A stretch of 64,000 nucleotides of DNA, taken from an uncultured Eubacteriales bacterium (GTDB lineage Bacteria > Bacillota > Clostridia > Peptostreptococcales > Anaerovoracaceae). How positions within the stretch are numbered: the stretch's first letter is position 1; each line of letters begins with the position of its first letter. The stretch lies in the NCBI GenBank assembly GCA_902795135.1, contig CADBJW010000002.1:23529-87528 (forward strand), given 5' to 3'. The position numbers and the translations under genes are program-made. This document shows positions 19,516 to 34,664 of the stretch, piece by piece. The notes beneath the pieces are model-generated. The model was not told the DNA's origin. It did not search any database and saw nothing but the letters and a program-made list of their open reading frames with translations.

Positions 19516-20262
19516 TTACTTCTCCTCTATCAAATATACTCTCAGACCACCGCGGCCCGTATCTCTCGTTCCTTTTGCTTCCGTCTCAGCTACGATGCTT
19601 CCCATAATGGCAAATCCTTTGTCGGCCGGTTCCGCACCGATTCCGATGATCGCTGCCAGACCGGACGGGGTTACCATCTCTGTGTCAACATCTTCCGCAG
19701 TTCTGAAGTCATAGCCTCTGCCGGGGCCTTTGCTTCCTGCGCATGCATCCATCATAGCCTTGACGGCCGGCACGGGTACGGGGATCCTGCCGTGGGCGCA
19801 GTCTACAAACCCAGTGCCATCGTAAATTGGCGATACAAGGATCCTGCCCGCGGACCTGCCCGGTTCCGGTGAAAAGCCCAGTTTGTCCAGTGCCGCTCCG
19901 ATTCCGGCAGCGTTTTGAATGGCTCTGTCCCGACCGACTTCATGGAAGTGTACCGTTTCCAAAGTCGCACCGTGCACCGAAGCCTCTGCCTTGGCTATGA
20001 CAGCATAGATATTCAGTGCAAAGTCTCTGGCGCCTTCTGTCAAACCGTGTTCTGCCATGTGGTGGATCACTGCTTTCACGTCTTCATAACTTCTGCCGTG
20101 GTGAGCGTGTTCGTGACCATGGTGGTCATGGTCGTGATGCTCATGGCTGTGCCCGCTGTGGACCTGAGGGATATGCAATTTTTCCCCAACGATATCGCTG
20201 AGTGCATCCAAAAGCATGTCTCCGCTGATACCATTGCTACAGTCAATATATAGTGTCTTCAT
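19516..20262 (-). CDS. LarC-family (DUF111) nickel-insertion protein, N-terminal (LarC1-like) portion only
   Basis: 249 aa from ATG 20262 (the ORF-track TTG is at 20319). Motifs: MKTLYIDCSNGISGDMLLDAL, His-rich HSGHSHEHHDHDHHGHEHAHHG, VHFHEVG, AHGRIPVPVPA, VTPSG. It ends where L. plantarum LarC1 ends, and valS follows 2 nt later. Confidence 0.7.
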   Translation of the reverse strand: MKTLYIDCSNGISGDMLLDALSDIVGEKLHIPQVHSGHSHEHHDHDHHGHEHAHHGRSYEDVKAVIHHMAEHGLTEGARDFALNIYAVIAKAEASVHGATLETVHFHEVGRDRAIQNAAGIGAALDKLGFSPEPGRSAGRILVSPIYDGTGFVDCAHGRIPVPVPAVKAMMDACAGSKGPGRGYDFRTAEDVDTEMVTPSGLAAIIGIGAEPADKGFAIMGSIVAETEAKGTRDTGRGGLRVYLIEEK

Positions 20263-20296
20263 ACAAAAAAACCTCTTATTATACTCATACATAGTG

Positions 20297-20305
20297 ATTA
20301 TAACA
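20297..20305 (-). promoter_or_regulatory. Candidate extended -10 promoter (TGTTATAAT) for the larC-like/valS/folC operon
   Basis: rc of 20297-20305 is TGTTATAAT, 35 nt upstream of ATG 20262. It lies just downstream of the aminotransferase terminator. Confidence 0.45.
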
Positions 20306-20335
20306 GATAGAGGGGTCAAAAGGTAGAATCTTATA

Positions 20336-20441: not shown

Positions 20442-21797
20442 TTATTTTACTGCTTCTGCCAGTGCTGCTTCGAAGATTTCGAGACCAGCCTGCAGCTGTT
20501 CGTCCGTTGCAACCAGTGGGCAAAGGATTCTGATTACGTTGTTGTAAGTACCAGCTGCTTCGAGCATCAGGCCCTTGTTCATAGCGTTCTGAACGATTGC
20601 GCTTACGAGAGCTGCATCCGGTTCCTTTGTTTCAGGATCCTTAACGAATTCGATACCCATCATTGCGCCAGTTCCTCTAACATCACCGATGCAAGGGTAC
20701 TTCTTCTGCATTTCTTTGAAGCCGTTACCCAGAACTTCAGCAATGTGCAGAGCCTTTGCAGGGAAGTTATCTCTTTCCATAACTTCGATAACCTTCAGTG
20801 CTGATACAGCTGCCAGAGCGTTAGCACCGTAAGTACCGCCGATTGTTCCAGGGTGTACACCTTCCATAACTTCGTCTCTTGCAACGATAGCGGAAAGTGG
20901 AATACCACCAGCGATTGACTTAGCTGTAGTCATGATATCAGGAGCACATCCAGCTTCTTTGTAGTATTCGGAAGCGAACATCTTACCGGATCTTGCCCAG
21001 CCGCACTGTACTTCGTCACATACCATCATGATGCCGTGTTCGTCACAGATCTTTCTAACAGCCTTAACCCATTCCAGTGGAGCAGGGATGAATCCGCCTT
21101 CGCCCTGTACAGGCTCGAACAGGATTGCTGCACATGAATCATATGGAGTTGCTTCGATGAATACGTCTTCCAGTTTGCCAATGTAGTACTGGATAGCTTC
21201 TTCTTCAGTCATGTGACCCGGAGCTCTGTAGAGGTTCGGGAATTCAGCTCTGTAAATACCATCAGGGAAAGGACCCATGCCTACTGCATATGACTTCTTA
21301 GCTGTCATCGTCATAGTCAGGGAAGTTCTTCCGTGGAATGCACCTGTGAATACGATGATGTTAGGTCTGCCAGTGTAGTTTCTAGCTACCTTTACAGCAT
21401 TTTCATCAGCTTCTGAACCGGAGCATACGAAGAATGCTTTCTTGTGGTCACCCTTTACAGGAGCGATTCTTGAGAATTCTTCAGCCAGCTTTACATATGG
21501 TTCATGAGTTGTGATGTTGAACATTGAGTGGAAGTACTTGTCAGCCTGTTCTTTAACAGCTGCAATCAGCTCAGGATGTGAGTATCCAATGTTAAGTACA
21601 CCAACGCCTGCGATCCAGTCGAGGAAGATGTTTCCATCAACGTCTTCGAACATTGCGCCTTCGCCTCTTTCGATAACTGCTTTATATGCAGTTCCGATTG
21701 CGGAAGGTACAGCTGCCTTTCTTCTTTCGATCAGGGCTGCAGCCTTAGGGCCCGGCAGTGGAGTGGTAATTTTTGGTAATGCTTCTCTTAATGCCAT
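20442..21797 (-). CDS. Class-III PLP aminotransferase (4-aminobutyrate / beta-alanine / omega-amino acid transaminase type)
   Basis: 451 aa. GabT-like length and motifs: FLDWIAGVGVLNIGYSHP, DEVQCGWARSGKMFA, TTAKSIAGG with the PLP lysine. Confidence 0.85.
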   Translation of the reverse strand: MALREALPKITTPLPGPKAAALIERRKAAVPSAIGTAYKAVIERGEGAMFEDVDGNIFLDWIAGVGVLNIGYSHPELIAAVKEQADKYFHSMFNITTHEPYVKLAEEFSRIAPVKGDHKKAFFVCSGSEADENAVKVARNYTGRPNIIVFTGAFHGRTSLTMTMTAKKSYAVGMGPFPDGIYRAEFPNLYRAPGHMTEEEAIQYYIGKLEDVFIEATPYDSCAAILFEPVQGEGGFIPAPLEWVKAVRKICDEHGIMMVCDEVQCGWARSGKMFASEYYKEAGCAPDIMTTAKSIAGGIPLSAIVARDEVMEGVHPGTIGGTYGANALAAVSALKVIEVMERDNFPAKALHIAEVLGNGFKEMQKKYPCIGDVRGTGAMMGIEFVKDPETKEPDAALVSAIVQNAMNKGLMLEAAGTYNNVIRILCPLVATDEQLQAGLEIFEAALAEAVK

Positions 21798-21848
21798 AAT
21801 TTTTCCTCCTTGAAATTAATATGGTTTAATGAATAGACCTAGATTAGA

Positions 21849-23639
21849 TCAATTTATATCAAGCTCTGAAAGCTTTCTATACAATGTTGCTCTCGAAAGA
21901 CCAAGTTCTTTAGCGACAACGTCTTTCACCCCGTTATGCTGCTTGAGCTTTCGCGAAATGATCTCCTTCTCGTACAGTTTGACCTGCTCGGCAAGGGACT
22001 GGTCGAGATTCTTGAATTTCACAATTTCTTCTTCCTTCCGCAGAATCCTTGCCGGAACATCATCCATGGTGATCATGTTCCCAAACGCCATATTTGTACC
22101 ATACTCAACGGCGTTCTCAAGTTCTCTGACATTCCCCTTCCAATCGTGCTTCATGTAAAGATCTTCGACTTCTGGCGTAAATCCGACGATTTTACGATTC
22201 ATGTAGGCGTTGTACTTCTTCAGGAAATGATACATAAGCAGCCGGATATCATCACGCCGCTCCCTGAGAGGCGGTATGCTGAGCGGAATCACGCTGAGCC
22301 GGTAATAGAGGTCCTCACGGAATTTGCCCTCTTTGATCAGCTTTTCCAAATCCCGGTTCGTTGCGGCAATGACTCTGACATCAACGATGATTTCCCGATT
22401 GCCGCCAACTCGTTCAAACCGCATATTCTGCAGAACATGAAGTATTTTTACCTGCAGATGCAAAGGCATATCTCCGATTTCATCCAGGAAAATCGTCCCG
22501 CCGTCAGCCTGTTCGAATTTCCCTGCTTTTCCCAAGTCACTTGCTCCCGTAAAAGCTCCTTTTTCGTATCCAAAAAGTTCACTCTCCAGAAGGTTCTCCG
22601 GGATGGCACCGCAGTTCACCGTTACAAAAGGACCATCGGACCTCTTGCTGGCATAATGAATTGCCTTTGCGAACATTTCCTTGCCTGTTCCGCTTTCACC
22701 GGTGATCATAACGGTGGAATTTCCCTTTGCGATCATCAGGGCCTGCCTCTTGGCCGTCATGATTTTTTTGCTTGTTCCTATTATATCATCAACCGTGTTT
22801 TTTATGGTGCGGTTGCTAAAATTATATACGAGTTTTTGCGCCTCTTCGATATCCCGGAAGGAAACAACGATTCCCTGAACCTCATCTCCATTGGTATAAG
22901 GTTTCGCCGTCACGATGAAGTGGTGATGCTTGTCTTCGCCCTTGAAGATTTCTTCATTTTCTGTGTATCCTCTTCCGGTCTCAAGAACCTTGATGGCTGG
23001 GCTTCCAGGCATCAGACTGCTGATATGTCTTCCGATCAGATCACGTTTCGTTGTCCCAAAAAGAACCGCTGCTCTGTGGTTGCAGTGTTTCACGTAACCC
23101 TTCTGATCCAGCGCGAAGATTCCCTCGTGTGCGGTTTCCAGAACCGTTGACATTTCATCTCTGGATACTTCAACGTTTTCCAGAGCTTCCTGCTGTTCGG
23201 ACTTCGCAGCCAAAAGATCGGCCATTCGTTCGACAAACCCGATCATATTTCGATTCGTATCAGCCAGAATCTGCATCTGTTCATCGGTAAAGGCGACCAT
23301 TCCTATGATCCCAATGGACTTGCCTTTGCAGACGATGGGAGTGCAGATTTCCGCACGTTCGCCAAACAAAGTTCCACCGACGCCTTTCTCGTCATAATCT
23401 TTATCTGCAAAAGCATCGGAAACGTAATGGGTCACACCGGTACGCATTACCCGCGCATAGAGATAATTACTATCCAGATCGCCCCGTTCTTCCTTGTAGC
23501 CCAGGCGGTCCGTATAGACGCCCGTGCCGCCGATGATCGTCAGCTCTTCATCAACGATTTCCACTTCGACTTTCAGTGCGATTGCGATAGCTTCTGCTAC
23601 TTGCTGCACGCTTGTTTTGATACCTTGTAATTGAGACAT
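21849..23639 (-). CDS. Sigma-54-dependent transcriptional activator (GAF-like sensor + PAS + AAA+ + Fis-type HTH)
   Basis: GGAAGGAG RBS before ATG 23639. Walker A GESGTGKE, the sigma-54 contact loop GAFTGA, and a C-terminal [15 protein letters not shown]. Confidence 0.85.
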
Positions 23640-23731
23640 GGTTTCTCCTTCCAGTACCATTTTAACACAATCATGGGTACTCGGAGCGGATTTTTTCTCA
23701 ATTTCGATACATTTGTGCCACTTTTGATAAA

Positions 23732-25486: not shown

Positions 25487-26815
25487 CTATCCTATTATTT
25501 TCTTAATCAACAACCTTGGTTCCGGTCTGATTTGATCTATTGCAAAAGCCTCCGCCGCTTCTCCCGCGGCCCGCTCTGTTTTTTCCAGATCGTTGCCGTA
25601 CAATGTACAGAGAATATCCCCCCTGCGGACTTCATCACCGCATTTACGACGCAGCACAATGCCTGCTGACAGGTCCACGGAATCTTCTTTTTTCTCTCTT
25701 CCTGCACCGGTATGCTGGGAGGCTAGACCAATTTTCATGGCATCCAGCCCGTGGATGTATCCATCCGCTTTTGCCGGAACATCGATCGCGATTCCTGCCT
25801 GCGGAAGCAGCCCGTAATCGTCTGCGATCGCAGGATTTCCACCCTGACCGCTGACAAAGCTTTTGAATCGCTCCAAAGCATCTCCGCTGGCCAAAGCCTT
25901 GGCTGCCGCTTCGCGGCCCTTTGCCATACCTTCTTCCATATCAAGACCTGCGGTTCCCGCTGCGCCTCCTAAATAGACCATCATGCCGGCGAGCTGAAGG
26001 GACAGTTCGGTAATGTCCTCCGGTCCCTTTCCCTTGAGAACGTCAATGGCTTCCATCACTTCGAGAGCATTGCCAACGGCATTTCCCAGTGGCTGTTCCA
26101 TGTCGGAAATGATTGCCATGGTTTTTTTGCCGCTGCTGTTTCCGATTTCGACCATAAGCCGTCCCAGCTTCTCTGCCTCTTCTTCCGTCTTCATAAAGGC
26201 GCCGCTGCCGCATTTGACGTCCAGCAGTATGGCGTCCGAACCGGAGGCTAGTTTTTTGCTCATGATACTGGATGTGATCAGGCTGAGATTTTCCACGGTC
26301 CCGGTAACATCACGCAGAGCATAGATCTTTTTGTCCGCCGGTGCGATGTGACCGGTCTGTCCGATCACCGCGATGCCTCGCTGGTTAACCTGGTTAATAA
26401 AATCACATTCTTCCATAGAAGTATGAAACCCCGGTATGGACTCCAGCTTATCGACGGTTCCGCCGGTAAAGCCAAGTCCCCGGCCGCTCATCTTGGCAAC
26501 CGGTACGCCGCATGCCGACGCAAGGGGTCCTACGATCAGCGTCGTTTTATCACCGACACCACCTGTGCTGTGTTTGTCTACTTTGATTCCCTCAATACCG
26601 CTCAAATCAACGGTATCACCGGATCTGCGCATGAAATCCGTCAGGGCAATGGTTTCTTCTTTGTTCATGCCCTGAAAGTATACAGCCATAAGAAAAGCGG
26701 CCATTTGATAATCCGGAATGCTTCCATCCGTATATCCATTGACCATGTATCGGATTTCTTCATCGGATAAAATAATGCCGTTTCTTTTTTTCGTTATTAC
26801 TTCAACTGTGTTCAT
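25487..26815 (-). CDS. pdp: Pyrimidine-nucleoside (thymidine) phosphorylase
   Basis: About 442 aa from ATG 26815 (GAGG upstream). Motifs: KKRNG..LSDEEI, DKHSTGGVGDKTTL, SGRGLGFTGGT. Confidence 0.9.
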   Translation of the reverse strand: MNTVEVITKKRNGIILSDEEIRYMVNGYTDGSIPDYQMAAFLMAVYFQGMNKEETIALTDFMRRSGDTVDLSGIEGIKVDKHSTGGVGDKTTLIVGPLASACGVPVAKMSGRGLGFTGGTVDKLESIPGFHTSMEECDFINQVNQRGIAVIGQTGHIAPADKKIYALRDVTGTVENLSLITSSIMSKKLASGSDAILLDVKCGSGAFMKTEEEAEKLGRLMVEIGNSSGKKTMAIISDMEQPLGNAVGNALEVMEAIDVLKGKGPEDITELSLQLAGMMVYLGGAAGTAGLDMEEGMAKGREAAAKALASGDALERFKSFVSGQGGNPAIADDYGLLPQAGIAIDVPAKADGYIHGLDAMKIGLASQHTGAGREKKEDSVDLSAGIVLRRKCGDEVRRGDILCTLYGNDLEKTERAAGEAAEAFAIDQIRPEPRLLIKKIIG

Positions 26816-26840
26816 GATGGACCTCGTCAAATATATATCA

Positions 26841-26868
26841 ATTATATCATTGAATCGAAAGATTTGAA
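26841..26868 (-). promoter_or_regulatory. Candidate sigma-A promoter of pdp (TTCAAA-16-TATAAT)
   Basis: rc of 26841-26846 is TATAAT and rc of 26863-26868 is TTCAAA. It sits between the preA terminator and the pdp start. Confidence 0.4.
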
Positions 26869-26902
26869 CTCAATCCCATAAAAATAATGCAAAAAAGCAA
26901 AC

Positions 26903-26945
26903 AAAAAAAGCGTTTGCGCTATGAGTCTCCCCACAGCGCAAACGC
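26903..26945 (-). terminator. Rho-independent terminator after preA
   Basis: GCGTTTGCGCT 26910-26920 pairs with AGCGCAAACGC 26935-26945. On the minus strand the hairpin is followed by TTTTTTT (26903-26909). Confidence 0.85.
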
Positions 26946-26981
26946 ATGCCATTATATACGAAAGTGTAGCCTTAGAAATTC

Positions 26982-28340
26982 TTACTCATACTGAGCCTTC
27001 AGGGCCAACTTCTTTTCTTTTCTGGCATCCTTCTTGAACTTGATGTGTGTTGCATCGTTTGCTTCACGAACGGCTACGCCGTTTTCGTCACGAACCTTCC
27101 ACTTGATTTCTCCCGGAGTAATGCATCCCTGTACAGGACATACATTCAGGCAGAGGTGGCATCCAACACAATTATCGTTCAGTTCCGGTCTTCTCTTCTT
27201 TTCGTTCCAGTCAATTGCCTGGTGAGCTGCATCGTAGCAGGAGATGTAGCATCTGCCGCATCCGATACATTTCTTTTCGTCAAAGGCAGGCAGAACCTTG
27301 TAGTCACGGTTCAGGTCTTCTGCCGGAATCAGGTTCGGCAGAGCGCATCCGATGAATTCATCAAGGTGATCATATCCCTTTTCATCCATGAAGTGCATCA
27401 GACCAGATGCCATATCTTCGACGATTCTGTATCCATACTGCATGATGGCTGTGGTTACCTGGATGTTTCTGCATCCAATTGCCAGGAATTCCGCAACGTC
27501 TCTCCAGGTTTCGATCCCGCCGATACCGGACATTTCGTGTCCATGCCCGAAGTTCCACTTGCCTTCCTTCGCCATTCTCTGGATTTCTTCATCCTGCTGT
27601 ACCTGCGTACAGAATCTGAGAGCAATTGGCTTTACAGCAGCTCCGGAGTAACCGGAAATGGATGACTTACCATCAACAACCGGCATACCTGTGTTGTTTT
27701 CAAAATCGATATTGGTAATCGATTTGATCGTATTGATGGCAGATACTGCAGCCGCTCCACCCTTGAGAGCTGCTCTGGCATGTTCTTCCATGTTCTTGCA
27801 GTTTGGTGTCATTTTAGCAACGAACGGAATATGAGGAACGGTTTCTGCAACAGCTCTGGAATAGGATTCTACCAGTTCGTTGTTTGTACCAACGTCAGAA
27901 CCCATGTCGTGGGAAGTCATCTGAGGACATGAGAAGTTACCTTCAATGATCTTTGCACCTGCTTCATCAGCCATCTTAGCCAGCTTCTTCCATTCATCAA
28001 CGGAAGAACCCATGATGGAAGCAACTGTAATGTGTTCCGGATAATCTCTGATCAGTCTGTACATGTATTCAAAGTTCAGTTCTGTCGGTTTATCGGAAAT
28101 CTGTTCCATGTTCTTAAAACCAACCCAAGGGAGACCTTCTTTGTTTGTCTGGTCAAATCTTGGTGAACATTCATCTGCTACGAAGATTCCGACGGTCTTA
28201 AAGAAGCAGCCGCCCCATCCTGTTTCATAGCACTTTGCAACCATGTCGTAATTTCCGCCTACCGGTGATGATGAAAGGAAGAACGGATTCAGACAATCAA
28301 CACCCAGATATTTCAATGATAAATCTTTCTTAACTGCCAT
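26982..28340 (-). CDS. preA: Dihydropyrimidine dehydrogenase PreA-like subunit (DHOD-family FMN domain + 2x[4Fe-4S])
   Basis: 452 aa. Active-site string NFSCPQM. C-terminal CIGCGRCYISC and CVGCHLCLNVCP ferredoxin motifs. Confidence 0.8.
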   Translation of the reverse strand: MAVKKDLSLKYLGVDCLNPFFLSSSPVGGNYDMVAKCYETGWGGCFFKTVGIFVADECSPRFDQTNKEGLPWVGFKNMEQISDKPTELNFEYMYRLIRDYPEHITVASIMGSSVDEWKKLAKMADEAGAKIIEGNFSCPQMTSHDMGSDVGTNNELVESYSRAVAETVPHIPFVAKMTPNCKNMEEHARAALKGGAAAVSAINTIKSITNIDFENNTGMPVVDGKSSISGYSGAAVKPIALRFCTQVQQDEEIQRMAKEGKWNFGHGHEMSGIGGIETWRDVAEFLAIGCRNIQVTTAIMQYGYRIVEDMASGLMHFMDEKGYDHLDEFIGCALPNLIPAEDLNRDYKVLPAFDEKKCIGCGRCYISCYDAAHQAIDWNEKKRRPELNDNCVGCHLCLNVCPVQGCITPGEIKWKVRDENGVAVREANDATHIKFKKDARKEKKLALKAQYE

Positions 28341-28341
28341 T

Positions 28342-29604
28342 CTATTTCACTCCTTTCTTTTCCAGATAAGCAATGATCGATGCTGCAGCTTCTTTACCTT
28401 CTGCTACCGCTTCAACGACTGTCTTTCCGCCGTTAACGATATCGCCTGCTGCGAAGAACTTGCCGCCGGCTTTGCCGCCTTTCTTAACTTTTACGAAGCC
28501 CTTTTCGTTAACGTCTACGCCGTATGCACTCTGGTCTTCCGGTTTCTGTCCGGTTGCAAATACCAATGCATCACAGCTGAATTCTGCCTTTGCTTTCTTG
28601 TCATAGAATCCAACTGCTTCAACCTTGTTCATCTTTGTCTTTGTTCCGATTGCTGCTACAGGATACAGTCCTGTTGTGATTCCAATGCCAAGTGACAGAG
28701 CATAGTGGAATTCATTGATGTTTGCCGGAGCTTCTTCGATGGTTCTTCTGTAGAGGATTCTAACATCCTCTGCGCCCAGCAGTTTTGCTGTAACGGCACA
28801 GTCGATTGCTACGTCACCACCGCCGACTACGATAACTCTCTTGCCAGGATCGAAGTCCTTTTTCTTCGTTCTTGCCTGTTTCAGATAGTCAACTGCGGAA
28901 TAAACGCCCTTGAGTTCTGCGCCCTTCAGTTTCGGAAGGTTTGCGTCCCAAAGTCCTGTTCCTACAAATACTGCGTCGAATGCTTCCAGATCTTCAGCCT
29001 TTGCTTCTGTGTTGAATACGAACTTTACGCCAAGGCCCTTTACCTGAGCGATATCGTGATCAACGACTGACTGCGGGAGTCTGGATGGAACGATTCCATA
29101 GGTCAGCATTCCGCCTGCTTTTTCTTCTCTTTCAAAGATCGTTACTTTGTAACCAGCCTTTGCCAGTTCTGCTGCACATGCCAGGGATGCAGGGCCTGCA
29201 CCAACACATGCAACCTTTTCAGCCTGCTTCTTTGAAGGAGCTTTGAGGGTCTTCATCTTAAACAGCTTTTCCTGTTCGATTGCGTATCTCTGTAACTTAC
29301 CGATTTCGATAGGTCTGTCAATGCCGCATCTTGAGCATGCTTCTTCGCAAAGATTGTCATAAGGACATACTCTAGCGCATGATCCGCCGAGAACGTTGTT
29401 TTCACGAATGGTCTCTGCAGCGCCTTTTACGTTCCTGAACCGGATCGATCTTATGAATTTAGCAGGATCCGTTCCAGCGGGACATCCCTTACTGCAAGGT
29501 GCATCGTGGCAGAGCAGACATCTTGCTGCTTCTTCGAGAGCTGTTCTGTGAGTGAAACCAGGAACAGCTTCAGCAGTGTACTTTGCTTTTACTACTTTAC
29601 TCAA
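28342..29604 (-). CDS. preT: Dihydropyrimidine dehydrogenase PreT-like subunit (glutamate-synthase small-chain-like FAD/NAD oxidoreductase with N-terminal Fe-S motifs)
   Basis: 420 aa with a TTG start 7 nt after AGGAGG. Motifs: CLLCHDAPCSKGCP, VACVGAGPASLACA and VIVVGGGDVAIDCA dinucleotide folds. A 1-nt gap separates it from preA. Confidence 0.75.
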   Translation of the reverse strand: MSKVVKAKYTAEAVPGFTHRTALEEAARCLLCHDAPCSKGCPAGTDPAKFIRSIRFRNVKGAAETIRENNVLGGSCARVCPYDNLCEEACSRCGIDRPIEIGKLQRYAIEQEKLFKMKTLKAPSKKQAEKVACVGAGPASLACAAELAKAGYKVTIFEREEKAGGMLTYGIVPSRLPQSVVDHDIAQVKGLGVKFVFNTEAKAEDLEAFDAVFVGTGLWDANLPKLKGAELKGVYSAVDYLKQARTKKKDFDPGKRVIVVGGGDVAIDCAVTAKLLGAEDVRILYRRTIEEAPANINEFHYALSLGIGITTGLYPVAAIGTKTKMNKVEAVGFYDKKAKAEFSCDALVFATGQKPEDQSAYGVDVNEKGFVKVKKGGKAGGKFFAAGDIVNGGKTVVEAVAEGKEAAASIIAYLEKKGVK

Positions 29605-29654
29605 TTTAATTCCTCCTTTTCAGGTGCTACCCTTAGCGTTTCAGCCGCAGATAG

Positions 29655-29693
29655 CAAACTGGCGGGAAAGGATTTCCCGTCAGTTTGATTATA
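29655..29693 (-). promoter_or_regulatory. TATAAT -10 box abutting a 33-bp near-perfect palindrome upstream of preT; candidate operator or leader hairpin
   Basis: rc of 29688-29693 is TATAAT. CAAACTGGCGGGAAA 29655-29669 pairs with TTTCCCGTCAGTTTG 29673-29687 (14/15 complementary, 3-nt centre). Confidence 0.45.
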
Positions 29694-29713
29694 GCCTTTT
29701 AAGTTCGCTCCGA

Positions 29714-31015
29714 CTAAAATTCAGGTGATGCGTCGCACTTCAGAACAGCGTTCAGAGTTGCAGTAGCAGCAGCTGTGCAGTCTTCGTCTGATACGTGTTC
29801 AGGTTCGCAGTGTGACAGACCATCCTTTGTTCTTGAGAAGATCATGGTTGTAGGGATCATGTATGCGCAGAACTGTGCGTCATGGCCAGCGCCTGACAGG
29901 ATCTTCTGCCACTTAGCTCCCATTTCTTCCATGGATTCTTCTACGAATCCGATCAGTCTGGAATCGAATGGAACTGGATCTCTCTTCCACTGTTCTTCGA
30001 TGTCGCATGTGCACTGCTGATACATTTCGCCAGCCATTTCCTTCAGGATTTCCATGCACTTGTCCAGAACTTTCTGATCAGGGTGTCTTACATCCAGTGA
30101 GAATTCTGCTTCGTCAGGAATGCAAGTGTGGATGCAAGGGTGTACATAAATTTCACCAGTTGTGAATACGAATTCATATTCGCTTTCGCCGCTTTCAATC
30201 AGTTCCTTGTTGTAAGCGTCATATCTCTCATGCAGCTTGCAGAGGAATTCTGCTGCAGCGTGCAGAGCGTCATGTCTCTTAGCCATTGGGAATGTACCAG
30301 CATGAGCAGTGAATCCGTGGAATCTTACTCTGTAGTTGAACATACCCATTACGAGCTGTACAGCACCGATTTCATTGCCGTTGTCTTCAAGGATAGGGCC
30401 CTGTTCCAGATGAGTTTCGAACATAGCGCAATATTTGTCAGGGCTGATTCTGTTAGCCTTGTCGCCTTTGTACTTGGATGCTGCCAGAGCTTCACCAAAG
30501 TTTGCGAATTCTGACTTATCCATTGGCTTTGAAGCCATCATGTTGTCATATTCGAAGTTTGGCTTCAGATAATCAGGCAGATAGTCATAGCAAATGATAC
30601 CGGATACCATCATTGCAGGCGGATACAGGGATCCTTCTTCGTTTGTCCAGATCATAGCTGTGAGCGGGTGCTTATGAGGAATGTTTTCAGCAGCTACTGT
30701 TTCCAGTACTTCCATACCAGTCATAACACCTTCGATACCGTCGTAGTTACCACCGTTCTTTACGGAGTCACAGTGGGAACCCATAACGATTCTCTTAGCG
30801 TTAGGATCGGAACCTTCCAGTGTTGCATACAGGCATGCACAGTCGTCGCATTCGATCTTAGCGCCAATGGCTTCCATACGTCTAACGAATTCGTCTCTCG
30901 CCATGTGTGCTTCTGGTGACAGGGAATATCTTGTGATTCCACCGTGACCTGCATCACCAAACTGAGCAAAAGTTTTGATTTTGTCAGACATTCTCTCTAA
31001 ACTACACTTATACAT
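29714..31015 (-). CDS. M20-family Zn amidohydrolase (N-carbamoyl-beta-alanine / N-carbamoyl-L-amino acid / allantoate amidohydrolase type)
   Basis: 433 aa. AGGAGG before ATG 31015. Family signature MGSHCDSVKNGGNYDGIEGV. Confidence 0.8.
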   Translation of the reverse strand: MYKCSLERMSDKIKTFAQFGDAGHGGITRYSLSPEAHMARDEFVRRMEAIGAKIECDDCACLYATLEGSDPNAKRIVMGSHCDSVKNGGNYDGIEGVMTGMEVLETVAAENIPHKHPLTAMIWTNEEGSLYPPAMMVSGIICYDYLPDYLKPNFEYDNMMASKPMDKSEFANFGEALAASKYKGDKANRISPDKYCAMFETHLEQGPILEDNGNEIGAVQLVMGMFNYRVRFHGFTAHAGTFPMAKRHDALHAAAEFLCKLHERYDAYNKELIESGESEYEFVFTTGEIYVHPCIHTCIPDEAEFSLDVRHPDQKVLDKCMEILKEMAGEMYQQCTCDIEEQWKRDPVPFDSRLIGFVEESMEEMGAKWQKILSGAGHDAQFCAYMIPTTMIFSRTKDGLSHCEPEHVSDEDCTAAATATLNAVLKCDASPEF

Positions 31016-31050
31016 AACTCATCCTCCTTTTTGAATGAAAATTTATTATC

Positions 31051-31074
31051 GTAATCGGTTGTGAAACCAGTTAC
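31051..31074 (-). promoter_or_regulatory. Imperfect inverted repeat in the 5' leader of the M20 gene; candidate LacI-family operator
   Basis: GTAATCGGTT-GTGA-AACCAGTTAC, with arms complementary at 8/10 positions. It lies between the -10 (31089-31094) and the RBS. Confidence 0.3.
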
Positions 31075-31088
31075 ATACATCTATTTTT

Positions 31089-31116
31089 ATTATATTGTAT
31101 TTTCTGAAAATTACAA
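31089..31116 (-). promoter_or_regulatory. Candidate sigma-A promoter of the M20 gene (TTGTAA-16-TATAAT)
   Basis: rc of 31111-31116 is TTGTAA and rc of 31089-31094 is TATAAT. Confidence 0.5.
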
Positions 31117-31139
31117 GCCTTTTCCATAAAAAAAAGGCT
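31105..31139 (-). terminator. Weak terminator-like hairpin after the DHOD-like gene
   Basis: AGCCTTTT 31116-31123 pairs with AAAAGGCT 31132-31139. On the minus strand it is followed by UGUAAUUUUCA. The stem is AU-rich, so confidence is low. Confidence 0.35.
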
Positions 31140-31141
31140 GT

Positions 31142-32251
31142 TTACCAGCCTAATTTTAACTTATTTGCGGGACAAATCGATACACACAATCCACATCCAG
31201 TACATTTTCCCTTATCAATGCTTATTTTCCCGCTTGTTCTAGTGACCGCCTTATAGATGCACAAATCGATGCATTTACTGCAGTTTTCCGTGCAAAGCGT
31301 GCTGTTTACAGTGCTGATCGACGGTTCATACTTCATTTCATCAAAGGATTTCAGATTTTTAAGTGCAGCTCCCCTGATATCTGAGATGTTCTTCAGGTTA
31401 TGATTTTGTGCCCAAACTTCTAATTCTTGTACAATCTTGCGGATTATACCATATCCCTCCGTTATGACACTAGTTCCAACCTGAACCACGTTTGCACCCA
31501 GCATCATATATTCCACAGCATGACGGCCTGTGCTGACCCCGCCTACACCGCAGATCGGAATGTCCACAGTCTGCGCGATGGTAGCTACGGATGCCAGCCC
31601 CAAAGGCCTGATATATTCCCCGGAAATCCCTCCATAGGTAAACAGTGCCGGTGAGGCGGACTCGATGTCCACGCCGAGAATGCCTCTTACCGTATTAATG
31701 GCCGTGACCCCGGATCCATTTGCCGCTTTTACAGCCTTTGCAACTTTCGCAATATTGGTGGTGTTCTGTGACAATTTCACGGTAACCGGTATTTTTACTG
31801 CCGAAACGACTGCTTTTGTCATATCGTAAATGGTATTCGCATCCGATGCGACGACTTCCAGCGATTCAACAGCCGGATTGGAAACGCTGAGTTCAATGCC
31901 ATCAGCTCCAAATTTTTCCATTTTACTTGCCATATAGGCGAGTTCCGAAGGAGAATGGCCTGAAATGCTGGCGATGACCACACCGCCCTTTGCCTTGGCG
32001 ATGCGCATTTCACGCTCCCAGCCTTCAATCTGTATATCGCTGTAAAGCCGAATGTTTTGGGCTCCCATTTCATCTGCGGCAATGCGCGGGCGTACATCCA
32101 TTACCGTATCGCTTACGATACTCTCTGTTACGACGGCACCTGCACCGCTGTCAAGAGATGCGCGGATACTTGCCCCATCCCGGTTCCATGGACCAGCAGC
32201 GACGACAATGGGATTCTCCAGTTCTATTCCCAGAAAATTTGTTTTTAGCAT
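31142..32251 (-). CDS. DHOD/DPD-family flavoprotein paralog with a C-terminal ferredoxin-like domain; substrate unknown
   Basis: 369 aa from ATG 32251 (AGGAGAG RBS; TAATG overlap with the lacI-family stop). MLKTNFLGIELENPIVVAAGPW is PyrD/PreA-like. The aligned active-site string is ELSVSNP, not NFSCP. Cys motifs: CTENCSKCIDLC and CTGCGLCVSICP. Confidence 0.7.
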   Translation of the reverse strand: MLKTNFLGIELENPIVVAAGPWNRDGASIRASLDSGAGAVVTESIVSDTVMDVRPRIAADEMGAQNIRLYSDIQIEGWEREMRIAKAKGGVVIASISGHSPSELAYMASKMEKFGADGIELSVSNPAVESLEVVASDANTIYDMTKAVVSAVKIPVTVKLSQNTTNIAKVAKAVKAANGSGVTAINTVRGILGVDIESASPALFTYGGISGEYIRPLGLASVATIAQTVDIPICGVGGVSTGRHAVEYMMLGANVVQVGTSVITEGYGIIRKIVQELEVWAQNHNLKNISDIRGAALKNLKSFDEMKYEPSISTVNSTLCTENCSKCIDLCIYKAVTRTSGKISIDKGKCTGCGLCVSICPANKLKLGW

Positions 32252-33309
32252 TAGAACATCTCTCCTATTCTTTCCTTGTGACCACATGATTTTCGAATGC
32301 GCATCTTTGTTTTTAATATGATATGCTTCGGCGTTGATTCCTCGCCGTTTTTTTCTTTTTCCTCAATCAGGTCGAATAGAATTCGCGCGCCATAAATGCC
32401 CATGAGCCGGTACGGCTCCTCAACCGTCGTCAATTTTGGTTCCATGAGATTTGACATTTTGTAGTTCCCGAACCCTACGATTGCTATGTCATCCGGTATG
32501 CAAAGGCCGCAGTCTTTGACGGCATCCATTGCGCCGTAAGCGATTTCATCGCTGGAAGCAAAAATGGCATCCAGCTGATCTCCCGGCACATCGCTTCCCG
32601 GGCTTGTAAACTCAGAAATCATTCTCTTCGCACCGATATAGCCGCCTTCAATACTGTTTTCTACGTCGTAGACATTCTTCGACGAAAGCTTTTTCCCGCT
32701 TGCCTTCATCACATTCTTATATCCCTGCAGTATGGAATTCGCTTCGTTTTCGGGAGCGTTCCCGCAGAGCATCCCAATGGTTTCATGTCCACATTCAACC
32801 AGATGGGCCGTCATCTTCACTGCCCCGTCACGGCAATCGGCTTTTACAGAATCCCAATCGGGACGGAGCTCGTTTTCTCCGATCAAAACGGCTGGAATCT
32901 TTTCTTCCCGGATCCATGACATATATTCATCGGACAGGGAGGAATACATGAGTATGATTCCATCCACCTTCCTGGTAATGAGATGATTGATGTATTCCTT
33001 TTCGATATCCGGATCCCGCTCCATGTTGCACATAAAGGTGATATATCCCTTCTGTCTGGCAACTTCCTCGACGCCGCCTGCGATTTCCATATAGCAGGAG
33101 CCGACGGTGTGCGGTGTGACCAGCCCTATGGTTCTTGTCTTATTAAAGTTCAGCCCACGGGCAAACCAGTTTGGAGTATATTCCTCCTGGTCTATGATTT
33201 TCTGTATCCGTTCCCTTGTGGCAGGTGCTACATTCTCAGGGTGATTGAGGACCCTGGATACGGTAGCAACGGAAACGCCTGCTTTTTTTGCGATTTGTTT
33301 GATATTCAT
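32251..33309 (-). CDS. LacI-family transcriptional regulator
   Basis: 352 aa from ATG 33309 (ATGA overlap with the MFS stop). HTH MNIKQIAKKAGVSVATVSRVLN and a periplasmic-binding-protein-like effector domain. Confidence 0.85.
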   Translation of the reverse strand: MNIKQIAKKAGVSVATVSRVLNHPENVAPATRERIQKIIDQEEYTPNWFARGLNFNKTRTIGLVTPHTVGSCYMEIAGGVEEVARQKGYITFMCNMERDPDIEKEYINHLITRKVDGIILMYSSLSDEYMSWIREEKIPAVLIGENELRPDWDSVKADCRDGAVKMTAHLVECGHETIGMLCGNAPENEANSILQGYKNVMKASGKKLSSKNVYDVENSIEGGYIGAKRMISEFTSPGSDVPGDQLDAIFASSDEIAYGAMDAVKDCGLCIPDDIAIVGFGNYKMSNLMEPKLTTVEEPYRLMGIYGARILFDLIEEKEKNGEESTPKHIILKTKMRIRKSCGHKERIGEMF

Positions 33310-34664
33310 TCCCGTTTCCTCTTTAATGATATGAATATACCAATTACGCACATGATAGCAAAAATGATAAACGCTTTATGAATCACGCTGACCAGAACAT
33401 CCGGCGATGCTTCTGTGATCTGCATTCCCGGAATCGTCATAGCCACTATAATCGTTACAATGACCATACTGGATGTCTGTCCGATGGTCCGCATGGTGTT
33501 CAATACCGACGTGGCGACCCCGTAATCCTTCTTCTCAACGCAGGACATAATCGCATTGGTATTAGGCGATGAGAAGAATGAGAATCCAATTCCCGTGATG
33601 ACCAGCGCGCATAGGATGACTGCGAGATTCGTTTCTGCATTTATAAAAACAAAGAACAGAATGCCGACCGCACAAATCCCCATACCGATGGAGGATAACA
33701 CGAAAGGCGAACGTTTATCCGACAGTTTCCCCATAAAAGGTGTCAAAATCGCCATGACCGCTGGCTGGGTAATCAGTATGAGCCCAGCGGTCTGGGAGGT
33801 ATAATCCATGACCACCTGAAGGTATATAGATGTAAGATAACCGATTGCAAATGTCGCCCCATAATTCATCAATGCGGCAACATTGGAAAGGGTGTATCCG
33901 ATGTTTGATTTGAACAGGCTGATGTTCAGTGCCGGATCCTCAGCCTTCAGTTCACGCGTCACAAAAGCAATGCCAAAAATCACACCGGCCACTGTAATCC
34001 ACACAGCACGTTGGCTGCCTCCGATTCCCGACAATCCATACATGAACGCCACGATGAAACAGGAATACAAGAGATTGCCCGGAAGATCAAAAGATCGGCC
34101 TCTGCCCTCGGATTCCTCAGCGGGCAGCCCCCGAATCGCTATCAAAAGCGCCGCAACCGCCAGCACTCCGGAAACGACAAAAATGGACCTCCATCCAAAA
34201 TTCTGATTCAGAATACCGCCTATGACGGGTCCCAATGAAAGACCGATGTACACAGAACCGATGGAATATCCAATGGCCTGACCCCGCATGTTTGGCGGAT
34301 AAGCACTGATCAGAATCGGCGTGTTCGTGCTGAGCACCATGGCACCGCCAATTCCCTGCACCACTCTCATAGCCAGAAGAAACGGCATGGATGGGGAAAA
34401 CACCGCGCCGACGCATCCCGCAATAAAAACAAGGATTCCCAGCACCAGTTCCCGTTCTCTGCTCCAAATATCGGCCAGCCTTCCAAAAGGCACGCTCAAA
34501 GCTGCGATCGTCAGCATGTACCCGGTAATGAGCCATCCAACCACCGATGCTTCGACGGAAAATTCCATACTGATCGATGGAACCGATAGATTTAATGCGC
34601 TGCCGATCAACGACATGGTAAAGGCTGTAATCACCGCTACAGCTGTTGCTGCTTTTCTTCTCAT
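33306..34664 (-). CDS. MFS transporter (multi-TM, drug/metabolite:H+ antiporter-like)
   Basis: 452 aa, hydrophobic throughout. MFS motif GRLADIWSRE. ATGA overlap with the miaB stop. Confidence 0.8.
   Translation of the reverse strand: MRRKAATAVAVITAFTMSLIGSALNLSVPSISMEFSVEASVVGWLITGYMLTIAALSVPFGRLADIWSRERELVLGILVFIAGCVGAVFSPSMPFLLAMRVVQGIGGAMVLSTNTPILISAYPPNMRGQAIGYSIGSVYIGLSLGPVIGGILNQNFGWRSIFVVSGVLAVAALLIAIRGLPAEESEGRGRSFDLPGNLLYSCFIVAFMYGLSGIGGSQRAVWITVAGVIFGIAFVTRELKAEDPALNISLFKSNIGYTLSNVAALMNYGATFAIGYLTSIYLQVVMDYTSQTAGLILITQPAVMAILTPFMGKLSDKRSPFVLSSIGMGICAVGILFFVFINAETNLAVILCALVITGIGFSFFSSPNTNAIMSCVEKKDYGVATSVLNTMRTIGQTSSMVIVTIIVAMTIPGMQITEASPDVLVSVIHKAFIIFAIMCVIGIFISLKRKRE

Follow-up and report, generated by a model that had tools for sequence, protein, structure and literature searches.

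The 64,000-nucleotide window analyzed here lies on contig C2 of an uncultured Eubacteriales genome (code G000; 2.08 Mb, 91% complete), whose closest relatives are Anaerovoracaceae assemblies from goat and other ruminant gut. Its pyrimidine-catabolic genes are preceded by a lacI gene and by a second gene, X, which encodes a paralog of PreA and dihydropyrimidine dehydrogenase (DPD). Together with a palindromic operator, lacI and X form a module that genome comparison shows to be a real, conserved feature, and in which X is best read as a pseudoenzyme that acts as sensor or co-regulator of LacI. The probability of this reading is about 0.6, based on sequence comparison and structural models; we infer the inactivity of X, its sensing of a ligand and the direction of its effect.

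X (31142..32251, minus strand; 369 aa) contains DHO_dh and 4Fe-4S domains. Its start, placed from the ribosome-binding site (RBS) and from relatives, overlaps the lacI stop codon by one base. The structural model of X (predicted local distance difference test, pLDDT, 80) consists of a flavin mononucleotide (FMN) TIM barrel and a C-terminal two-cluster ferredoxin domain, and its top Foldseek matches are pig DPD (E about 1e-25). The protein is 26% identical to E. coli PreA, versus 57% for the PreA of the host, and falls below the curated cut-offs of PRK08318 (215 vs 335) and PRK07259 (193 vs 269).

In pig DPD numbering, used here for X, the protein of this locus carries K574E, E611R, N668S and C671N (positions 574 and 671 are its Glu43 and Asn125) and retains N609, S670, K709, N736, T737 and eight C-terminal Cys. 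Across 79 X sequences, E574 is found in 79/79 and R611 in 75/79, Cys671 is absent from 75/79 and N736 is present in 78/79; N609, K709 and the Gly/Ser motifs for FMN are retained. Neighbouring PreA proteins carry K574 and C671 in 41/41 cases (one gap), and Lys574 is present in 29/29 outgroup proteins. The Lys574 equivalent presumably contacts the flavin; no source on a K574 or K43 mutant was found in the literature searched. In DPD the essential proton comes from C671, and the C671A variant binds pyrimidine and does not reduce it (PMC8097209). The ring itself is held by N609, N668, S670, N736 and T737 (PMC10970046), of which N609, S670, N736 and T737 are mostly retained in X. Because C671 is lost, the ring contacts are kept and C671A DPD only binds, X looks from its sequence like a protein that binds pyrimidine without turnover. 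The sequence-only reading had described it as a second reductase of the dihydroorotate dehydrogenase (DHOD) family, a role that does not fit the loss of key catalytic residues.

The E574 proteins form one clade (support 100/100; SH-like approximate likelihood-ratio test, SH-aLRT, 100), which lies beside Lys- and Cys-bearing PydA-like enzymes. A search of 400 genomes belonging to other families in the phylum found no X ortholog at a level of at least 41%, and more distant E574 proteins were recovered by profile search only. Separately, 15 PydA-like proteins from other families of the phylum (L210-L238) have K574, a shortened active-site loop, no Cys and no LacI neighbour; judged by these features, they are another uncharacterised PydA subfamily.

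Linkage was examined in 151 genomes of the family, whose kinship makes the counts non-independent. X occurs in 28 of the 151 and the LacI ortholog in 27, with 32 matches. All 32 LacI matches lie directly upstream of an X match, mostly with touching stop and start codons, and the sole X genome without a LacI match has X at a contig edge; one exception is the truncated X of G103. Five genomes have two intact lacI-X pairs, the second of which, where its context is visible, stands behind codB-codA. Where an X-bearing locus has enough flank, its neighbours include lacI in 38/39 cases, preT and preA in 35/35 and the M20 gene in 31/35. The lacI-X-M20-preTA layout is also present in the cultured gut isolates Hominibacterium faecale, Zhenpiania hominis and Anaerovorax odorimutans SL.3.17.

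The linkage extends beyond these orthologs. Six distant E574 proteins (34-41% identical, from about five lineages, one Christensenella) are each encoded 3' of a LacI whose recognition helix and Arg match those of the LacI at this locus and whose C-terminal tail is similar. Their loci flank codB/codA, a xanthine permease with an 8-oxoguanine-deaminase-like gene, or a uracil permease with a nitrilase-family gene. A seventh, closer E574 protein likewise follows a LacI. No LacI was found near 39 K574-type outgroup loci (2 close relatives and 37 others), most of which extend only 1.5 kb. In a further arrangement (L182, G097:C12), codB-codA-lacI-X is followed in tandem by lacI-X-operator-preT-preA, so that paralogous modules stand side by side. 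In the Christensenella locus (L272), lacI-X is flanked by codB and codA, and operator-like palindromes precede both codB and a xanthine-dehydrogenase-like operon.

The LacI of this locus (32251..33309, minus strand; 352 aa, start likewise set from RBS and relatives) has a conserved C-terminal tail and resembles CcpA. Its best PDB matches are CcpA proteins (E 1.5e-48), and the Arg and Asn that usually bind sugar (positions 193 and 253) are missing from it. A true CcpA was nevertheless rejected, since the protein reaches 203 vs 442 bits with the CcpA model TIGR01481, and neither HPr nor HPr kinase was found in the 91% complete host genome. HPr kinase exceeds its cut-off in only 3/151 family genomes. 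The conserved surface patch of this LacI would therefore need another partner.

A complex model supports X as that partner. The LacI core dimer modeled with X scored 0.72 (0.72, 0.70 and 0.73), while the best of three controls scored 0.00; contact agreement between runs was at least 82% and partner pLDDT at least 85. The score mark was reached by 58/80 solved complexes and 2/110 mismatched pairs, rates that apply only roughly here. In the model, LacI residues 83-87, 158, 301-309 and 328-333, including R309, face X residues 47-48, 74-77 and 99-106, which flank the substrate loop 66-69. On the X side, E76, S102, E103 and Y106 are invariant, whereas S102 and Y106 are variable in PreA and the outgroups; the polar interface residues are 0.93 conserved versus 0.72 in sets of polar residues drawn at random (p about 0.001). 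On the LacI side, R309 is invariant (74/74) and aligns with CcpA R303, which we take to be R304 of the B. subtilis protein, with a numbering offset of one residue. B. subtilis CcpA R304 contacts HPr Ser46-P (PMC4591507).

The candidate operator is a 14-bp palindrome resembling a catabolite-responsive element (cre), TGWAACYRGTTWCA (31062..31075, assigned to neither strand). It lies just 3' of the -10 box of a sigma70-like promoter (31089..31116, minus strand; 10/12 consensus match, conserved in relatives) in front of M20-preT-preA. The genome holds this one exact match, versus 0.14 expected from base composition. The palindrome lies between X and M20/preT, within 230 bases, in 65/81 distinct X loci, and keeps its place 5' of preT where M20 has moved or another gene intervenes (L251, L254). 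In genomes that lack lacI-X, 12 preTA or hydA loci showed no copy of it. The LacI of this locus is the only LacI-family gene found in the genome and is therefore the likely binder. Since the operator comes after X and before M20/preT, X stands outside the repressed unit.

A degenerate site (12/14) lies about 80 bases upstream of a distant NCS1 nucleobase transporter gene in this genome. Such a site precedes NCS1 in 9/9 examined genomes with the preTA-clade LacI versus 0/6 without it, so that co-regulation of NCS1 and the adjacent hydA by LacI appears likely from these comparisons, although the site overlaps the -35 position and the genomes compared are related. Variant palindromes occur before codB and in 3/6 distant loci. 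A wider regulon built from one-mismatch operator matches was not established: in five genomes such matches were no more frequent than those of a reversed control pattern, and the exact sites at preTA are the only ones that stand out. Among other operator-like sites of the host genome, the second-best (G000:C19:27190, L239, between a GltD-like flavoprotein operon and cobT) and the third-best (C22:46201, before an NhaC-family transporter) could be due to chance.

In the proposed switch, LacI would bind the palindrome and repress M20-preT-preA, and would probably also act at the degenerate site upstream of NCS1-hydA. X would be a pseudoenzyme derived from DPD, produced from the lacI transcript, and would dock on the LacI N-subdomain at the surface used by HPr-Ser46-P on CcpA. 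Its pyrimidine pocket, and perhaps also the redox state of its FMN and Fe-S centers, would switch the repressor. By analogy with CcpA, we favour ligand-free X as a co-repressor that would be released by uracil or thymine. Position 736, whose side chain contacts O4, would fit a pocket tuned to the substrate of the operon: X copies that neighbour codB/codA or belong to the same clade have Asp in 7/8 cases, and preTA-linked copies have Asn. The broader formulation, held with even odds, is a two-protein nucleobase sensor of anaerobic Bacillota in which a CcpA-like LacI would have exchanged HPr for a disabled DPD paralog. Its pocket would be retuned between Asn736 for uracil/thymine and Asp/Glu for amino-substituted bases; it would control preTA, codBA or purine-deaminase operons and possibly read redox state through FMN/Fe-S.

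Several observations weigh against this sensor reading. The complex model places X on a surface already seen in CcpA-HPr structures and may in part reproduce them, although X is unrelated to HPr and the controls did not dock. An Arg or Lys at the R309 position is also found in unrelated LacI proteins. Regulator and enzyme genes are tightly linked in the ordinary case of a regulator and its target as well, and in Chakrabartyella piscis X precedes preT-preA with the operator present and the LacI ortholog elsewhere in the genome. At loci of the codBA clade, lacI-X follows the operator-like site and is itself part of the operon. The position-736 shift beside deaminase operons rests on few independent lineages, and the argument is weakened by an X copy with Glu736 (L280) that adjoins a uracil permease. 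Finally, K709, S670, the FMN-phosphate motifs and usually the eight Cys are still present in X, and copies from the codBA clade and Chakrabartyella retain the catalytic Cys.

Because of this last group of retained features, X could still be catalytic. It would then be an active FMN/Fe-S oxidoreductase for a new substrate, such as a modified pyrimidine or purine, next to a cognate LacI that senses a small molecule directly. UacX is an example of a PydA paralog with a new substrate (PMC12507026), K574E and E611R together could amount to an exchange of charges, both Fe-S motifs are retained and regulator-enzyme adjacency is common. We nevertheless consider this alternative unlikely. The catalytic position is variable (N, T, S, C, F or L) while the predicted LacI-binding patch is invariant, and the distant copy L280 lacks the Fe-S domain entirely. 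X lies upstream of the operator, and its neighbours vary between uracil, cytosine and purine operons with LacI as the sole constant. Direct sensing by LacI fits poorly with the missing sugar-binding Arg and Asn.

Less probable again is a role for X as a non-catalytic accessory subunit of PreT-PreA, either in an asymmetric PreT2-PreA-X assembly or as an electron relay, with a purely positional link to LacI. The 35/35 association with preT and preA and the case of Chakrabartyella, where X stays with preTA and not with lacI, would suit it, as would the retained C-terminal Fe-S domain, which in DPD serves the FMN of the other subunit (PMC7332683). However, lacI and X are both absent from 23/50 preA genomes, preTA is not found next to the codBA-linked or distant copies, and a terminator, a promoter and the operator separate X from preTA here.

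The sensor reading thus concerns the control of a pathway that is itself known. Reductive pyrimidine (Pyd) catabolism, proposed in the sequence-only reading, is borne out by the families and intact motifs of PreT, PreA, the M20 enzyme and a dihydropyrimidinase. PreA/PydA2 (26982..28340, minus strand) scores 549.6 bits with PRK08318 (cut-off 335) and keeps K574, N609, E611, N668, S670, C671, K709, N736 and T737, i.e. every uracil-binding residue. It is 57% identical to E. coli PreA; its 452 aa compare with 417-429 in most relatives, through a short internal insertion and a C-terminal extension. PreT/PydA1, the subunit for flavin adenine dinucleotide (FAD), NAD(P)H and Fe-S (28342..29604, minus strand; TTG start with RBS), is 44% identical to E. 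coli PreT. Its Tyr-Arg-Arg motif, as in the NADPH-using GltD and NfnB, makes NADPH the likelier cofactor, whereas E. coli PreT has Ala-Arg-Glu. The M20 N-carbamoyl-beta-alanine amidohydrolase (PydC-like; 29714..31015, minus strand) was identified by family (TIGR01879, 301 bits vs 204), by the motif GSHxDxVxxGGxxDG at residues 79-93, and by its best PDB match, the N-carbamoyl-beta-alanine amidohydrolase 8c46 (E 5e-61).

The window indeed contains no dihydropyrimidinase, as had been stated, and the genome search found no amidohydrolase on contig C2. The ring-opening step is not lacking, however: a hidden Markov model search of the genome recovered a dihydropyrimidinase gene at G000:C24:9932-11362, and of the two options offered before, reliance on a distant hydantoinase-type gene proved correct. 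The C24 protein scores 460 bits (cut-off 393) with TIGR02033, a model whose range probably includes HyuA-type hydantoinases as well. The protein aligns over its whole length with hydantoinases and dihydropyrimidinases of solved structure (E 2e-106) and has intact metal ligands (HxH, the carbamylated Lys, two His and Asp), and the NCS1 transporter is encoded directly upstream. The other four amidohydrolases of the genome are HutI (C5), PyrC (C9), a TRZ/ATZ-type deaminase (C7) and an unassigned one on C12.

A uric-acid role for the C24 gene as HyuA is unlikely, as ygeX was not found in the genome, ygeW and ygeY gave only weak matches, and a yge-type uric-acid cluster was not found in this genome. 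Instead, its identity of 36% to E. coli HyuA, the missing ygeX and its co-occurrence with preA favour PydB. Among the 151 family genomes, a preA ortholog is present in 50, a hydrolase ortholog in 50 and both in 48, with the hydrolase linked to the X locus in 0/59 loci. In the relative G081, NCS1, the hydrolase, preT, preA and M20 form one cluster, and G122 is similar. These complete one-locus Pyd clusters (L171, G081:C75; L170, G122:C75) have neither lacI-X nor the operator and so offer natural controls. The aldehyde dehydrogenase and omega-aminotransferase of the G081 cluster have orthologs on host contig C11 (57% and 63%). Given the C24 hydrolase, its co-occurrence with preA and the C11 orthologs, the Pyd pathway is, as far as gene content can tell, complete and dispersed over contigs C2, C24 and probably C11. 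The C24 gene, the 48 of 50 preA genomes, the single clusters of G081 and G122 and the degenerate operator copy mark it as ordinary.

The NCS1 transporter would import uracil or thymine, PreT-PreA would reduce it and the C24 dihydropyrimidinase would open the ring, after which the M20 enzyme would free beta-alanine or aminoisobutyrate. The omega-aminotransferase and acylating aldehyde dehydrogenase on C11 probably complete the breakdown. Reduction of 5-fluorouracil (5-FU) by PreTA is plausible from its homology to the E. coli enzyme, and in one cohort study >99% of human-gut preTA belongs to four other taxa (PMC11185696).

A variant pathway, in which the cluster would degrade orotate or bypass dihydropyrimidinase with X as second reductase, could draw on the lack of an amidohydrolase in the window and on contig C2 and on Arg611, which could suit a carboxylate, but is very improbable given the C24 enzyme and its distribution, the canonical pyrD and pyrC on C9 and the absence from X of the Lys and Cys common to PyrD and PreA. 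The orotate fermentation raised earlier is likewise unsupported: pyrB, pyrC and pyrD form a separate de novo operon on C9, and nothing points to fermentation. A catabolic unit of DHOD, dihydroorotase and ureidosuccinase was not found in the genome, where pyrD with pyrC occurs only in the biosynthetic C9 operon. X was also rejected as the PyrD of the genome, as pyrD lies on C9.

All seven open reading frames on the minus strand between 25487 and 34664, and the families first named for them, were confirmed by open reading frame and family checks. That they form a single unit was not confirmed: X and preA are each followed by a terminator-like hairpin, and M20 and pdp each have a promoter-like site in front. 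Three units are likely: lacI-X, possibly with readthrough from miaB and the major facilitator superfamily (MFS) gene; M20-preT-preA; and pdp with a beta-CASP nuclease gene. A terminator-like hairpin closes lacI-X (31135..31151, minus strand; pattern match only) and another, with a 16-bp stem, lies 3' of preA (26910..26945, minus strand; pattern match). An extended -10 promoter-like site in the MFS 3' end (33334..33361, minus strand) could drive lacI-X, its 9/12 match being at chance level. These hairpins and promoters are pattern matches, overall no more numerous than in shuffled sequence; their support is intergenic position and, for the M20 promoter, additional conservation in relatives.

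The pyrimidine-nucleoside phosphorylase gene pdp (25487..26815, minus strand; start corrected from RBS and relatives) has its own promoter-like site (26868-26841), and its product scores 575.7 bits with PRK06078 (cut-off 559). The DHA2-type MFS gene (33306..34664, minus strand), assigned by family and neighbourhood, is a passenger 3' of miaB outside the conserved module. Neither the MFS protein as pyrimidine transporter nor pdp as a fixed member is supported, as they occur in only 12/39 and 10/32 X-bearing loci with enough flank; across the family genomes NCS1 is the conserved nucleobase transporter instead.

Other genes were noted nearby and elsewhere. A sigma-54 activator (PAS, AAA) and a class III aminotransferase of the gamma-aminobutyric acid (GABA) type lie 3' of the beta-CASP gene (window 20442-23660, minus strand). 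They recur in 14/32 and 12/32 loci, respectively, and possibly serve beta-alanine or GABA use. On C11 (G000:C11:41271-45876, L240) the acylating aldehyde dehydrogenase and omega-aminotransferase are accompanied by a sigma-54 activator and preceded by an operator-like site that ranks fifth among 1566 upstream regions. A second, non-orthologous hydantoinase (36%) and an M20 gene (29%) form a pair 4-8 kb upstream of lacI-X in Hominibacterium, Anaerovorax and relatives (L076, L078, L079, L081). A His-rich LarC N-terminal-type protein (window 19516-20319, minus strand; TIGR00299 99.8 vs 90) is encoded alone between the aminotransferase and valS.

If the sensor reading is true, a DPD paralog was recruited once, in one clade, as the sensing subunit of a repressor, a clear case of enzyme-to-sensor evolution. 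The module would then explain preTA induction in Anaerovoracaceae, including cultured gut isolates, and bear on whether 5-FU could induce its own inactivation in lacI-X carriers. The defined operator and interface make the proposed function testable. The analysis also corrects the annotation of X, which databases name tRNA-dihydrouridine synthase, nitronate monooxygenase or dihydroorotate dehydrogenase and for which the ESM Atlas gives automatic DPD/DHOD labels only. No paper on a DPD or PyrD paralog partnering a LacI protein was found in the literature searched, in which coverage of subscription journals is incomplete.

Protein-controlled LacI repressors and enzyme-derived co-regulators are each known kinds. 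In trigger enzymes and related co-regulators (RocG/GudB-GltC, CysK-CymR and MalY-MalT), a metabolic-enzyme fold reports its substrate to a transcription factor by binding it. RocG/GudB, CysK and MalY are active enzymes on LysR, Rrf2 or MalT regulators, whereas X is a duplicated, apparently disabled DPD subunit with a LacI. LacI proteins normally bind small molecules themselves, and to our knowledge their known protein partners (HPr/Crh, CRP) are not enzyme-derived sensors.

As for the enzymes, the host shares with the described PydA1A2-PydB-PydC pathway (PMC7332683) and E. coli PreTA the intact active site, the dihydropyrimidinase and the M20 ureidopropionase; it differs from known Pyd clusters in that the genes are split over C2, C24 and probably C11. 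The preTA-hydA locus of Anaerostipes hadrus (PMC11036815) is without the M20 step, which the host locus has. Clostridial PydAc (PMC7332683) and UacX (PMC12507026) resemble X as stand-alone FMN/Fe-S proteins of the PydA family without an FAD domain in anaerobic Bacillota. Both are active reductases, whereas X lacks K574 and usually C671, and the N-terminal ferredoxin domain of PydAc is absent from X. The closest regulatory counterpart is the CcpA/HPr-Ser46-P/cre system (PMC3074128, PMC4591507), with which the module shares a cre-like operator and a predicted partner site that includes the R303/R304 match. Unlike CcpA, this LacI has only a handful of sites in the genome, and the gene next to it encodes the predicted partner, a dedicated flavoprotein paralog of 369 aa.

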